From the NCBI GenBank assembly GCA_023244835.1, contig JAHFLN010000003.1, forward strand, positions 1 to 51,631: a DNA stretch of 51,631 nt, given 5' to 3'. Made by a program: the position numbers and the translations under genes. Below are positions 881 through 48,696 of the stretch, in pieces. Under the pieces are notes generated by a model that saw only the letters and a program-made list of their open reading frames with translations, searched no databases and was not told the origin of the DNA. Origin of the DNA: Candidatus Harrisonbacteria bacterium (GTDB lineage Bacteria > Patescibacteriota > Minisyncoccia > UBA6257 > UBA11618). Position 1 is the stretch's first letter, and each line of letters opens with the position of its first letter.

Positions 881-910
881 TTGACATTTTACATATAAAT
901 AGGGTATATT
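881..910 (+). promoter_or_regulatory. Sigma70-type promoter of the M15 peptidase gene
   Basis: TTGACA (881-886), 18-nt spacer, TATATT (905-910). Confidence 0.65.
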
Positions 911-989
911 ATACGCGTTACGATCATTGATATATAAATGTGGCGCGCGTGCGCTGCAGCAGGCATTCCAAAGAATCGGAGGTGTGACG

Positions 990-1556
990 ATGTCGAGAAT
1001 TCTCGATAGCGGTATGGGGAGGATCGAGGCTCTTATGGGGAATCCCGCGCGTGACCAATGCCCCGGGGAAATTCTGGATATGCAAGCGCTCGTATCCGTG
1101 CGATATTATTCGTTCGACGGGCTGCTCCACGAGGGGCGGATCCTCGTCGATCGGCGACTCGCGCTGGATATCTCCACGGTCTTCGCGGCGATCGAGCGGG
1201 AGCGGTTTCCGGTTATGAGCGCGATTCCGGTTGCGGATGCGCGTATCGGCTGGAGCGACGACGTGTCGATGGCCCTGAATAACAGTTCGGGGTTCAACTA
1301 CCGTCCGATCACGGGAGGCGGAACGAAGGTGTCGGCGCATGCCCTGGGGCAGGCGATTGACATCAATCCGCTCTTGAATCCGTATGTGAGCCCTGCAGGG
1401 GTCGTGAGTCCTCCGGGCGCGGTGCGGGATGTCTCGAGGCCCGGAACGATTCTTGAGAATTCGTTCCTCGTGAAGCTGTTCGATGAATTCGGGTGGGAAT
1501 GGGGCGGGCGGTGGACGGACCGCGTCGACTGGCACCACTTCGAGAAGAGGTTGTAG
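990..1556 (+). CDS. M15-family Zn metallopeptidase (D-Ala-D-Ala carboxypeptidase-like)
   Basis: NSSGFNYR, SAHALGQAIDINP, WGGRW and DWHHFE motifs; SD GGAGGTG at 978-984 before ATG 990. Confidence 0.88.
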   Translation: MSRILDSGMGRIEALMGNPARDQCPGEILDMQALVSVRYYSFDGLLHEGRILVDRRLALDISTVFAAIERERFPVMSAIPVADARIGWSDDVSMALNNSSGFNYRPITGGGTKVSAHALGQAIDINPLLNPYVSPAGVVSPPGAVRDVSRPGTILENSFLVKLFDEFGWEWGGRWTDRVDWHHFEKRL

Positions 1557-1599
1557 GGCAAATGCGGCGCGATGGTGCCGTATATGGCTCTCTTGACGC

Positions 1600-1638
1600 A
1601 AAAGGCTTTCCTGGAACACGGGAAAGCCTTTTCTTTTT
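1600..1638 (+). terminator. Intrinsic terminator
   Basis: AAAAGGCTTTCC/GGAAAGCCTTTT stem followed by a T-tract. Confidence 0.8.
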
Positions 1639-1682
1639 GCCTAAAAAATGGGGGTATGCGATATTTTCCTTTGTCAAATTTC

Positions 1683-1691
1683 TGTGGATAA
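1683..1691. promoter_or_regulatory. Perfect DnaA box upstream of the RNR gene
   Basis: TGTGGATAA, the reverse complement of TTATCCACA. Confidence 0.5.
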
Positions 1692-45640: not shown

Positions 45641-45641
45641 A

Positions 45642-45757
45642 TCCCGTTAGAAATAATCCGATTGTTTTCGGAAATGGAATTGGGTATTATAGCCTATCTA
45701 TGGATCGGGATATTTATAATGCGGCACGGCCGTCTATGACGGCCTATTTCTAACGGG
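45642..45757. mobile_element. 116-bp MITE-like palindromic insertion
   Basis: Terminal inverted repeats CCCGTTAGAAATA/TATTTCTAACGGG, flanked by direct repeat ATGAA at 45637-45641 and 45758-45762. Confidence 0.78.
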
Positions 45758-48295
45758 ATGAAAGACGTAATCAGTATAAAAGGCGCGCGCGAGCATAACC
45801 TGAAGAATGTGTCGCTCGTGATCCCGCGCAACAAGATGGTGGTGTTTACCGGACCCTCGGGTTCAGGCAAGTCGTCCTTGGCATACGACACCATTTTTGC
45901 GGAAGGTCAGCGCCGATACATCGAGTCTCTCTCGGCATACGCCCGGCAGTTTTTAGGATCGCTCGACAAGCCCGATGTGGACGAGATCGAGGGTCTCTCG
46001 CCGGCCATCTCCATAGACCAGAAGAGCCACTCGGGAAACCCGCGCTCGACGGTCGCGACGATTACGGAAATTTACGATTACCTCCGCGTGCTCTATGCGC
46101 GCGTGGGAACTCCCTTCTGCCCGCGGTGCGGTTCGGAGATACGCAAGATGACGAATGAGCAGATCGTGGATATTGCGGTGAATATCGCTTCGCGGGCCGC
46201 GGGCAAGCGGAATATGGTGGTAATGGCCCCCGTCGTGCGCGGGCGGAAGGGCGAATACTACCAGATGTTTTACGACTTTTTAAACGCGGGATATTCCGAA
46301 GTCCGCTTGAATGGCGAGATGAAGTCGCTCCGCGAGCGCATCGTGCTCGACCGCAACAAAGCGCATACGATAGATCTCGTGATCGACCGCATTCCGACAG
46401 TCCTCGACTTTAGGGAATTGGACAACCGCTTGCGCCTGTCGGAGGCAATCGGTTCAGCCCTGAAATACGGGCAGGATGTCGTAACGATCATAACGGACGA
46501 GGAGACCTCTCTCTCGGCGAAGTTCACCTGCCCGAAGGACGGCTTCTCGTTCCCGGAGATCGAGCCGCGCCTCTTCTCGTTTAATAGTCCCTATGGCGCG
46601 TGCCCCGAGTGCCACGGCCTCGGCACCGAGAGCGTATGGTCGGAGGATCCGTGCAAGATCTGCCTCGGCAAGCGCTTGAAAGAGGAGTCGCTCTCGGTAT
46701 TGATAGGCGGCAAGAATATTTCGAACGTGGTCGGCCTCTCGATCAGGGACGCGCACGCGTTTTTCGAGGAGCTCGACATCGCGCTTTTCGAGAAGTCGGA
46801 AAAAGAAAAAAGCGGCATGTACGAGGTGGCCGAGCTTCCGATTAAGGAGATAAAGAACCGCTTGCAGTTCATGATCAACGTAGGGCTCGATTACCTGGCG
46901 CTTGAGCGGAAGTCGGGGACCTTGTCGGGCGGAGAGAGTCAGCGTATCCGCTTGGCTTCGCAGATCGGCTGACGGCTCGTGGGCACGCTCTATATCCTGG
47001 ATGAGCCGACGATCGGTCTGCACCAGCGTGACAATGACCGGCTGATCGCGACGCTGAAGGAGCTGCGGGACTTGGGGAATAGCATCATCATCGTGGAACA
47101 CGATGAGGACACGATCCGCGAGTCGGACTATCTGGTCGATATCGGCCCGGCGGCAGGCATTCACGGGGGTACCGTGGTAGCCGCGGGTCCTATTCCCGAA
47201 ATACTGAAAGACGCGAAACAGAAGTCCCTTACCCTCGATTATCTGCGGGGAGACGCGAAGATCATGGTGCCTCTCGATCGGCGGAAGGTTGTAAAGGATA
47301 TGCCGATGTTGAAGATCAGGAACGCGCACGCGAACAATCTGCGTAACGTGAGCGCGGATATCCCGCTTGGTAGGTTTACGGCGGTCACGGGCGTGTCAGG
47401 ATCGGGCAAGAGCTCGCTCGTATACGATGTGCTCTACAAGACGCTCGCCAATTCCTTTAACGGTGCGAACCATAAGCTCGTGGAAGGCCAGACGATCCTC
47501 GGGGCGGAATATCTCACCCGCGTGATCAACGTGGACCAAGGCGCGATCGGGCGCACGCCGCGTTCGAATCCCGCGACCTATGTGGGCGCGTGGACGCATA
47601 TCCGCGATCTTTTCGCCGCGACGCCCGACGCGAAGATCCGCGGCTACCGCCCGGGCCGCTTCAGCTTCAATGTGAAGGGCGGTCGGTGCGAGAACTGCGA
47701 GGGGCACGGCGAGATCGCGATCGAGATGCACTTCTTGCCGACCATCCATATCGCGTGCGAGGTGTGCAAGGGTAAGCGGTTCGACCGCGAGACGCTTGAG
47801 GTGGAATACCAGGGTAAGAATATCCACGAGGTCTTACAGACCACGGTCGAAGAGGCGGCCGAGTTTTTCAAGGAGATTCCATGGCTTCACGACCAGCTGA
47901 AAATCTTAAACGACGTGGGTTTGGGTTATATCACGCTCGGCCAGTCGGCCACGACCTTGTCGGGCGGCGAGGCCCAGCGCATCAAGCTCGCTGCGGAACT
48001 CGGAAAGCGCGATACGCGAAAGACCTTGTATTTGCTTGATGAGCCGACGACCGGCCTTCATTTTTCGGATATCGAGAATCTGCTCGCGGTCCTGAATCGC
48101 CTCGTCGACCGTGGGAATACGGTTGTCGTGATCGAGCATAACTTGGATGTGATAAAGACCGCTGATCATGTGATAGACCTAGGGCCCGAAGGTGGTATAG
48201 GCGGGGGAGCGATCGTGGCCGTGGGAACTCCCGAAGCGATCGCGAACGCGAAGGCGAGCCACACGGGGAAGTATTTGAAGCGGGTTTTGAAATAA
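45758..48295 (+). pseudogene. uvrA: Excinuclease ABC subunit A interrupted by one in-frame TGA at 46970-46972 (nonsense mutation or sequence error)
   Basis: One continuous frame: [28 protein letters not shown]; both ATPase domains otherwise intact. Confidence 0.85.
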
Positions 48296-48366
48296 AAAAA
48301 GAACCTCGATAGGCCGAAGCTCGTCGAGGTTCCAATGTTCCTTATGCGGCAGGAACGGCCGTTTCC

Positions 48367-48615
48367 TCAATGCATCGTGATTACTCGATCCCAGGTGAGC
48401 GATTGGCCGCCATGGTTACGCGTCATCGAGACGGCGCGATCATGATGGGAAAATTCAAATGATGCTTGCAAACGCTGGAGATCGAGCATCTTTTTGGCCT
48501 TGAGGCCGGGAGACGGATCGGGATCGGCGGTCACGGGCCGGAGGCCTGCGAGCCGTAGCGCGACAAATGTGATCATCTCCCGCATGCCAGTTCTGGTGCC
48601 GAGTAATACGTTCAC
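48367..48615 (-). CDS. Small hypothetical protein (82 aa)
   Basis: SD AAGGAG before GTG 48615; TTGACA-18-TACTAT promoter (48694-48665); terminator ~48295-48332. Confidence 0.5.
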   Translation of the reverse strand: MNVLLGTRTGMREMITFVALRLAGLRPVTADPDPSPGLKAKKMLDLQRLQASFEFSHHDRAVSMTRNHGGQSLTWDRVITMH

Positions 48616-48696
48616 TATCCCACTCCTTAAATCGAGGAAGAGCTGTCGTTGGCTGATCATGTATATAGTACCATAGATACTATATACTTGTCAATT

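Follow-up and report, generated by a model that had tools for sequence, protein, structure and literature searches.

In the textbook mechanism of bacterial translation initiation, the Shine-Dalgarno (SD) motif of a messenger RNA (mRNA) pairs with the anti-SD of the 16S ribosomal RNA (rRNA), and an SD is thought to be meaningless without this rRNA partner. The subject of the present analysis is a stretch of 51,631 nucleotides from a Candidatus Harrisonbacteria bacterium, hereafter the window, which corresponds to an entire contig (C17) of a 30-contig genome of 658,147 bases, and more specifically the SD-led genes it carries in autonomous single-gene units, here called cassettes and designated by the position of their start codon. 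In Actinobacteria and Deinococcus, i.e., the "group C" of GeneMarkS-2, leaderless genes with a -10 box some 6-7 nucleotides (nt) upstream coexist with SD-leadered genes, the anti-SD is canonical and the use of the SD in core genes is wide; the genome considered here shares with these mixed genomes the presence of two start formats but confines the SD to lineage-restricted cassettes. The so-called "morons" of phages are single genes inserted with their own promoter and terminator between conserved backbone genes, and while they resemble the cassettes as autonomous single-gene units, the latter are dispersed on the chromosome and lie outside prophage.

Loss of the 16S anti-SD has been described in a subgroup of Parcubacteria, which overlaps the group lacking uL1 and in which SD helices are presumably not formed (Tsurumaki et al., 2022, RNA 28:1041, PMC9297842). 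The genome under study resembles this subgroup in being small and of the type of the candidate phyla radiation (CPR), in that uL1 (PF00687) was not found in its 97.4% complete assembly by a search whose control matched 14/14 genomes, and in that the 16S tails of its relatives lack CCUCC in 9/9 cases; it differs by its genes keeping an SD, which do not appear in the passages of that paper on motif loss. For the Bacteroidia, two reports describe SD-blind ribosomes, where the anti-SD is masked by bS21, bS18, and bS6 and where rpsU is a single, autoregulated SD-led core gene (PMC7797042, PMC13000453). There as here, the genome avoids the SD and a minority of genes keeps a strong one, functional in the Bacteroidia; in the present lineage, however, the anti-SD itself appears to be gone rather than masked, the SD-led genes are accessory and come in dozens, and the bS21-like gene has no SD. 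Groundwater Paceibacteria gain accessory genes by transfer, in horizontally acquired islands (mSystems 2025, PMC12455944), whereas the units described here are single-gene cassettes rather than islands of several kb, and the available text of that paper contains neither "Shine-Dalgarno" nor "ribosome binding." While loss of the anti-SD is in print, SD-bearing genes in such genomes were not found in our literature searches.

Two start formats and the tail of the 16S rRNA

The source genome (G000), of CPR/Parcubacteria type and with groundwater as source habitat, has a guanine-plus-cytosine (GC) content of ~55%, and the genomes of its relatives measure 0.4-1.3 Mb. Four related genomes were fetched whole, namely a close relative of the same genus (G003; median identity of 89.6% over 287 core proteins) and three further genomes of the order (G004, G008, and G018), and conservation was scored by tblastn. 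Genes were called with a simple finder of our own, built on a 3-periodic Markov model, which gave 620 confident genes and 220 open reading frames (ORFs) in the gaps; a confident gene was considered as lineage-restricted when it had no homolog in G004, G008, and G018, and as conserved when a homolog was present. An SD was called strict when GGAGG, AGGAG, AAGGA, or GAGGT occurred 4-10 nt before the start, the motifs at the module starts of the window being read by eye.

An earlier, sequence-only reading of the window had proposed two gene-expression formats, and their existence is confirmed genome-wide and across the order, with SD-free native genes on the one hand and autonomous SD-led accessory cassettes on the other hand. 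Far from being equally frequent in the core, a strict SD precedes 47/120 lineage-restricted vs. 38/497 conserved genes of the source genome (p = 7e-16), its frequency in the conserved genes being at chance level, and a complement-motif decoy is found before 3/120 and 29/497 genes, respectively. The same split appears in G004 (9/48 restricted vs. 11/427 conserved genes), G008 (18/97 vs. 31/385), and G018 (32/223 vs. 15/432). The spacing between SD and start peaks at 6-8 nt in the accessory genes of the source genome and at 5-6 nt in those of G018 but is flat in core genes, and the motif of the SD-led genes is AAGGAG(G), the full complement of the canonical 16S tail, with GGA as its invariant core. 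Outside the confident genes, a strict SD lies before 68 of the 1,141 ATG and 28 of the 501 GTG codons opening ORFs of at least 50 amino acids (aa), vs. 3.26% of 51,282 non-start codons.

The two formats also differ by the signals surrounding the genes. Promoter and terminator sites, taken here as consensus matches only, are both present at 28/60 SD-led accessory vs. 20/429 conserved genes of the source genome (p = 1e-16). In its SD-led genes, the distance from the end of the -10 box to the start has a median of 64 nt and always exceeds 12 nt, the leader being roughly 55 nt long (about 40-80 nt), whereas conserved genes with a promoter-like site have the box within 12 nt of the start in 35% of the cases. 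The leaderless character previously attributed to native genes is borne out by a genome-wide peak, where 9-10% of 603 genes have a TANNNT separated from the start by exactly 6 nt, vs. 1-2% at offsets >13, and the start context of core genes is A-rich and G-poor (G = 0.16-0.24 at positions -13 to -5 in the 356 genes with an unambiguous start). As judged from such start regions, the native genes would be expressed as leaderless or SD-free mRNAs, a component of the whole explanation given below towards which we lean slightly.

The SD-led genes are dispersed over the contigs and do not group into paralog families, 220 proteins yielding 3 pairs of similar sequences, and one large island or prophage is ruled out; beside the cassettes of the window no phage genes were seen, some of these cassettes sitting between uvrA/uvrC and similar genes. 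Relative to core proteins, the SD-led proteins contain 2.8 times the Cys, 2.1-2.2 times the Trp, and 0.7 times the Lys, in both G000 and G018 despite their differing GC, and this amino-acid make-up explains the low coding scores of SD-led genes.

With respect to the rRNA, the 16S genes of relatives with a detectable helix-45 motif all have the tail GATCA(C/A/T)TTAA... without CCTCC, and no conserved CCUCC is present elsewhere inside the relatives' 16S, that of G003 being devoid of CCTCC anywhere. G003, G008, and G018 carry SD-led genes yet possess a 16S without the complementary CCUCC. The assembly of the source genome gave no blastn match to either flank of the G003 16S, this region being missing from it; on the 16S contig of G003, 16 other matched genes are a median of 84% identical to their counterparts in the source genome. 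For positions 15000-24900 of the window, the sequencing runs listed as containing this DNA are four DNA runs of one study, with no RNA run among them. At the 3' end of the G003 16S, the contigs of these runs amount to short community unitigs, where one low-depth piece (X4, depth 2) has an anti-SD-less tail resembling that of G003 and is not assignable to the G000 organism.

It could be argued that a canonical reader is hidden, i.e., that a second, unassembled 16S or an alternative 3' end bears CCUCC, with a separate ribosome population for each format. Assemblies of this kind often miss rRNA genes, that of the source genome having none, and both motif and spacing are exactly as expected for a canonical tail. 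Nonetheless, G008 and G018 (98% complete in 3 contigs for the latter) show one 16S match each, on contigs of 228 kb and 283 kb, respectively, both without CCUCC, and the core genes show no SD. A downstream "exon" bearing the anti-SD is also ruled out in 7/9 loci of relatives, where CCTCC is absent within 1.5 kb downstream of the 16S. A hidden reader of this kind appears very unlikely.

Two side observations concern the same genes. In G004, the 16S match breaks off around the 1390 region, where unrelated sequence takes over (G004:C5:4200-5860), and the helix-45 motif was not found anywhere in this genome; the rRNA gene may be broken there or carry an insertion. From a by-eye reading of the regions downstream of the relatives' 16S, no 23S follows within 1.5 kb, several loci have an ORF starting a few hundred bases downstream, and the rRNA genes look unlinked.

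Conservation, age and origin of the cassettes

Among 43 orthologous pairs between G000 and G003, with proteins only ~57% identical, a strict SD is kept in 29 and a loose one in 37. Over 42 aligned upstream regions, the per-site identity amounts to 0.84 for the SD core (177/210), 0.59 for the spacer (175/297), and 0.72 for the leader (664/924), the SD core differing from the spacer (p = 5e-10) as well as from the leader (p = 1.6e-4; Fisher tests). Measured against four-fold sites, whose identity is 0.53-0.60, the spacer beside the SD is at the neutral level. The SD of the family of cassette 35406 varies in sequence (AGGGGG, AGGAG, GAGGT) but is kept over four genomes and down to 33% protein identity, with homologs in G003 (81% identical), G001 (38%, AGGAG N7 ATG, i.e., with a spacer of 7 nt), and G002 (33%, GAGGT N6 ATG). 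Within this scope, i.e., the G000/G003 pair and a single family followed over four genomes, the comparison shows the signature of purifying selection on the SD itself.

The genes behind the motif are real genes, whose proteins evolve fast but under purifying selection. In the comparison of G000 with G003, dN is 0.060 and dS 0.83 for core genes, and the SD-led genes (n = 37) have a dN of 0.335, i.e., 5.6x that of the core, a dS of 1.22, and a dN/dS of 0.24, so the modules are not decaying. The sequence-only reading had seen their genes as foreign-looking, a description that does not hold in the source genome, where their GC is 0.572 vs. 0.566 for the core and their synonymous codon use correlates with that of the core (r = 0.96). 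The codon usage of SD-led genes is the cell's own in both G000 and G008, and no GC offset was observed in either; in G018, GC is 0.547 and third-position GC (GC3) 0.60 for the 84 accessory ORFs led by an SD, which occur as single genes scattered across three contigs, vs. 0.47 and 0.49 for the core.

Positions 1-5686 and 31197-51630 of the window are syntenic with contigs C16 and C8 of G003, respectively, while the stretch at 5.7-31 kb, core genes included, falls in a gap of the G003 assembly. In the covered parts, syntenic orthologs exist for 10/10 cassettes, 9-10 of them keeping an SD-like motif; eight window cassettes, those at 15.3-21.3 kb together with 39873, were left out of the dating, seven being in the assembly gap and 39873 having no G003 match. 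Genome-wide, 32/47 confident SD-led accessory genes have a homolog in G003. The cassettes are shown in this way to be old residents with native codons, vertically inherited since before the split of G000 and G003; recent import is ruled out in the source genome by the G003 orthologs, the dN/dS, the native codons, and the retention of the SD.

Further back in time, a horizontal origin of the cassettes is probable. The gap holding 48615 is only 14 nt long in G004 and the one holding 39873/40391 only 54 nt, and these cassettes are therefore insertions into a conserved backbone, or else deletions in G004. The M15 peptidase family of 990 is patchy, being present in 8/300 other genomes of the order and led by an SD only in G003, the seven other genomes showing leaderless or SD-free starts. 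For the Clp_N protein of 33142, the nearest homologs outside the lineage carry Chloroflexi and Planctomycetes names, and none of G001, G002, G005, G006, and G009 yielded a homolog of 33142 or of 33753. Of the earlier suggestion of acquired genes retaining donor signals, acquisition is thus supported by the near-empty gaps of G004, the patchy M15 family, and the Clp_N homologs, whereas a passive leftover is contradicted by the synteny with G003, the native codons, and the SD core being kept.

If the signals were nonetheless passive relics, cassettes would have come from SD-using bacteria, and SD, promoter, and terminator would be neutral leftovers, any translation being SD-independent. Such a view accommodates the restriction of the cassettes to the clade of G000 and G003, in gaps near-empty in G004, the names of the outside Clp_N homologs, the foreign composition of the SD-led genes of G018, and the chance-level SD of those genes that more distant relatives also have. 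It does not accommodate a spacer at the neutral level (0.59) beside an SD core at 0.84 at a core dS of 0.83, a strict SD kept in 29/43 orthologs, the native codon usage of the source genome, or the SD of G001 and G002, re-formed there with another sequence, and we regard it as distinctly unlikely.

What might read the motif

The explanation to which we incline, with modest confidence, is that native SD-free genes coexist with old cassettes carrying a working SD in an anti-SD-less lineage. Lineage-restricted genes would reside in autonomous cassettes, each with a sigma-70-like promoter and a leader of ~40-80 nt ahead of a canonically spaced AAGGAG(G), followed by the ORF and an intrinsic terminator; intergenic gaps of the conserved backbone house at least two of them. 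Most likely, the SD would serve to start or control monocistronic mRNAs with long leaders, for which leaderless initiation and translational coupling are unusable. Because it is under purifying selection, the SD is taken as a working cis element in these cells. As part of this whole explanation, and at the same modest confidence, its reader would be something other than the canonical 16S tail. That the cells read the SD by some way not using the 16S tail and not yet described is a proposition less extreme than that of foreign ribosomes (see below), and one that we would sooner doubt than assert.

Several points weigh against this explanation. No SD reader was found in the analyses made, the 16S is absent from the assembly of the source genome so that its own tail is inferred from relatives, and the genes and starts all come from our own simple gene finder. 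The conservation test comprises one genome pair (G000/G003) plus one family, and the leaders as a whole (0.72) are above the neutral level, a general regulatory constraint thus perhaps accounting for some of the SD signal. The M15 family having no SD in other families of the order, that protein does not in itself require one. The GC-richer SD-led genes of G018, finally, fit a more recent import in that genome.

Instead of being read by the ribosome, AAGGAG could be a regulatory tag, bound by a trans factor such as a CsrA-type protein or a C-rich small RNA that controls the accessory set. The motif has an invariant GGA at its core, and CsrA-type proteins bind GGA motifs; CsrA (PF02599) was matched in 11/151 sampled genomes of the order, 8 of them in the family of the source genome, where all 7/7 other sampled genomes have it, often in two copies. 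In the source genome itself, the CsrA-like ORF (G000:C3:8289-8666, minus strand) is weak and divergent, with 28.9 bits over model positions 1-37 of 53, and belongs to the SD-led cassette genes itself. Elsewhere in the order, CsrA was matched in 3/143 sampled genomes and not in G018, which has the clearest SD-led set; the lack of a match in G018 and most sampled genomes of the order rules out CsrA as a general SD reader.

Pairing of the SD with the upstream leader exceeds shuffles modestly in G018 (z = 2.0) and in G008 (z = 3.1), in favour of a tag, but shows no excess genome-wide in the source genome (z = 0.6), and the degree of folding of the 10 leaders of the window does not surpass that of shuffles (z from -1.45 to +1.52); a cis-acting anti-SD hairpin in the leader is not supported by these shuffle tests in the source genome. 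A trans-acting CCUCC RNA was rejected, the intergenic matches being mostly reverse strands of SD sites, or tRNA or terminator stems, and none being conserved. The motif is moreover the full complement of the canonical tail at canonical spacing, which also speaks against a tag. All in all, such a tag seems unlikely.

The sequence-only reading had further envisaged host ribosomes as the reader, after transfer of DNA or mRNA. In a wider version, the cassettes would be formatted for foreign ribosomes, i.e., the canonical anti-SD ribosomes of a host or neighbour, via DNA or mRNA transfer or borrowed ribosomes. A selected canonical SD in a cell without anti-SD, the autonomous format with promoter and terminator, the fast evolution (dN 5.6x core), and the lineage restriction would all be explained, the cargo includes wall hydrolases, and a VirD4/TraG-like ORF is present at G000:C20:6116-7831. 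However, VirB4 (PF03135) was not found in the source genome, the codon usage in G000 and G008 is the cell's own, the cassettes are dispersed rather than in one transferable block, proteins of an ordinary cytoplasmic type (GNAT, HTH, kinases) are among the cargo, and N-terminal hydrophobic export-like segments are not enriched (14/60 SD-led vs. 111/429 conserved genes). It also counts against this view that we know of no route for DNA or mRNA transfer into a host in the CPR. We hold it to be highly improbable.

The genes of the window and their meaning

Eighteen module starts had been listed in the window and 18/18 are ATG or GTG on the strand given. As regards their SD, 10 have a strict motif and 7 a looser G-rich one, while the start at 20687 has neither. 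Own promoters and terminators, also claimed for the modules, were recovered in part: in the scanned stretches, a sigma-70-like site lies 36-75 nt upstream of 10/15 modules and a terminator-like hairpin follows 8-9/15, and region-wide counts of promoter sites stay within the range of shuffles (8 vs. 5.7+/-2.3 and 11 vs. 6.2+/-3.1). As for the cargo proposed, 9/18 modules match a Pfam family over its cut-off, namely Peptidase_M15_4, AAA_33, Destabilase/SLT, SpoVG, AAA_28, Clp_N, GNAT, AP_endonuc_2, and HTH_3.

The strict SD motifs belong to ten starts. On the plus strand, the Peptidase_M15_4 cassette of 188 aa (978..1556) has GGAGG (978-982) N7 ATG 990, its G003 ortholog being 80% identical and having GGAGGG, and the minus-strand orphan of 112 aa (4878..5228) has AAGGAG N6 GTG 5216, with a G003 ortholog 63% identical and also with AAGGAG. 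An AAA_33 kinase-like protein of 203 aa is encoded on the minus strand (15321..16003) behind a promoter-like site at 16003-15975 and AAGGAGG N5 ATG 15932, next to a plus-strand orphan of 178 aa (16015..16648) with a promoter-like site at 16015-16043 and AAGGA N10 ATG 16112. Another plus-strand orphan, of 142 aa (20000..20515), has a promoter-like site at 20000-20029 and GGAAGGAGG N6 ATG 20087. The stand-alone Clp_N protein of 219 aa (32483..33221, minus strand) follows a promoter-like site at 33221-33193 and AAAGGA N7 ATG 33142, the G003 ortholog being 66% identical with AAAGGAG. For the membrane-like orphan of 241 aa (34404..35300, minus strand), the promoter-like site is at 35300-35272, the start region reads AAAGGAG N7 GTG 35190, and the hairpin is at 34429-34404; its only homolog found, in G003, is 68-70% identical and has AAAGGAG. 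The plus-strand gene of 68 aa (36383..36752) combines a promoter-like site at 36383-36412 (11/12 matches), AAAAGGAG N7 GTG 36485, and a hairpin at 36725-36752, and its G003 ortholog (67% identical) also has AAAAGGAG. The two remaining ones are on the minus strand, i.e., a small gene of 55 aa (39644..39873) with AGGAGAGGAG N4 ATG 39873 and a terminator-like hairpin at 39669-39644, and an orphan of 82 aa (48367..48627) with AAGGAG N7 GTG 48615, located between the second uvrA piece and uvrC. This uvrA consists of two adjacent ORFs (404 + 438 aa, 6 nt apart; 45758-48295), each with 89% identity to its match in G004, where the two matches are likewise adjacent (C3 71515-70304 and 70294-68984), and the split seems conserved.

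Among the seven starts with a looser motif, all on the plus strand except one, the gene of 74 aa (17845..18128) has AAAGGGG before ATG 17845 and a terminator-like hairpin at 18096-18128, and the lysozyme-like Destabilase/SLT protein with a hydrophobic N-terminus (18846..19459) has a promoter-like site at 18846-18874, GGGGGG before ATG 18950, and a hairpin at 19438-19459. The exception is the minus-strand SpoVG of 125 aa with a zinc-ribbon insert (19528..19905), where GGAGA precedes GTG 19905. The GNAT protein of 177 aa (33753..34286) is preceded by GGGGGAG at ATG 33753 and has a G003 ortholog 54% identical with GAGGAGAGG, the AP_endonuc_2 TIM barrel of 293 aa (35319..36287) has a promoter-like site at 35319-35347 and AGGGGG N4 ATG 35406, and the HTH_3 protein of 144 aa (36793..37376) has a promoter-like site at 36793-36822, GAAGGGG N8 ATG 36882, and a hairpin at 37347-37376. 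The last of them, of 110 aa (40317..40776), shows a promoter-like site at 40317-40345, AAGGGGGG N6 ATG 40391, and a terminator-like hairpin at 40754-40776, its G003 ortholog being 69% identical with the motif AAAGGAGG. The AAA_28 NTPase gene on the plus strand (20687..21363), without SD by the criteria used, ends in a terminator-like hairpin at 21336-21363.

The leaderless pattern is seen on the plus strand at the class II ribonucleotide reductase gene nrdJ (1719..4010; TACTAT N6 ATG 1734), the cupredoxin-like gene (14873..15262; TATATT N6 ATG), the genes at 17105..17740 (TATACT N7 ATG 17105) and 41077..41463 (TAGGAT N6 ATG), the ABC permease gene (42027..42818; TATGAT N6 ATG), and, with a short or no leader, uvrC (49171..50373; TAGTAT N8 ATG 49171), and on the minus strand at the DUF2585 gene (22435..23019; TATACT N6 ATG 23019) and the gene at 39247..39615 (TATTAT N6 ATG 39615). 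A further gene, starting at 40819, shows this pattern too, and in the VOC, SDR, and DoxX genes the box lies 9 nt upstream of the start. The leaderless format had been exemplified with nrdJ, 17105, and uvrC, which do show it, and the identities given to the named native genes are upheld as well, i.e., class II ribonucleotide reductase, glyoxalase/VOC, CAP, SDR, DoxX, UvrC, and pyruvate kinase. Their status as conserved genes fails for several, SDR, DoxX, and others at 21-38 kb having no homolog in G004, G008, and G018.

Elsewhere in the window, a tRNA-Asn gene (5556-5628) is followed by a HicB/HicA pair (5699-6153) and then by a block of lower GC (44-50%) that extends to 15262 and contains metal-homeostasis genes, i.e., Fur, a nicotianamine-synthase-like protein, CobW, YibE/F, a CsoR-type repressor, a P-type ATPase with HMA, DsbD_2-HMA, and a cupredoxin; the whole (5556-15262) may be an island integrated beside the tRNA. 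An ECF-type sigma factor gene (24433-24972) and that of a DUF5667 protein adjoin those of a CAP-family protein and of an 835-aa protein that combines HYR repeats and a peptidoglycan-binding domain (to 30573), most genes of this region (24433-30573) being without homologs in G004, G008, and G018.

The finding also matters for the annotation of these genomes, as gene finders trained on core genes miss many cassettes, the one used here having first missed 8/18. Were the cassettes formatted for foreign ribosomes after all, they would constitute a bacterial counterpart of genes formatted for the expression machinery of a host. More generally, a lineage apparently without anti-SD keeps a canonical SD under purifying selection, and to do so only on autonomous, fast-evolving accessory cassettes; either a second way of reading the SD would exist, or the SD would be a label setting accessory genes apart from native ones for regulation. 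In both cases, the finding bears on how ultra-small symbionts express newly gained genes and on how translation signals evolve after loss of the anti-SD.

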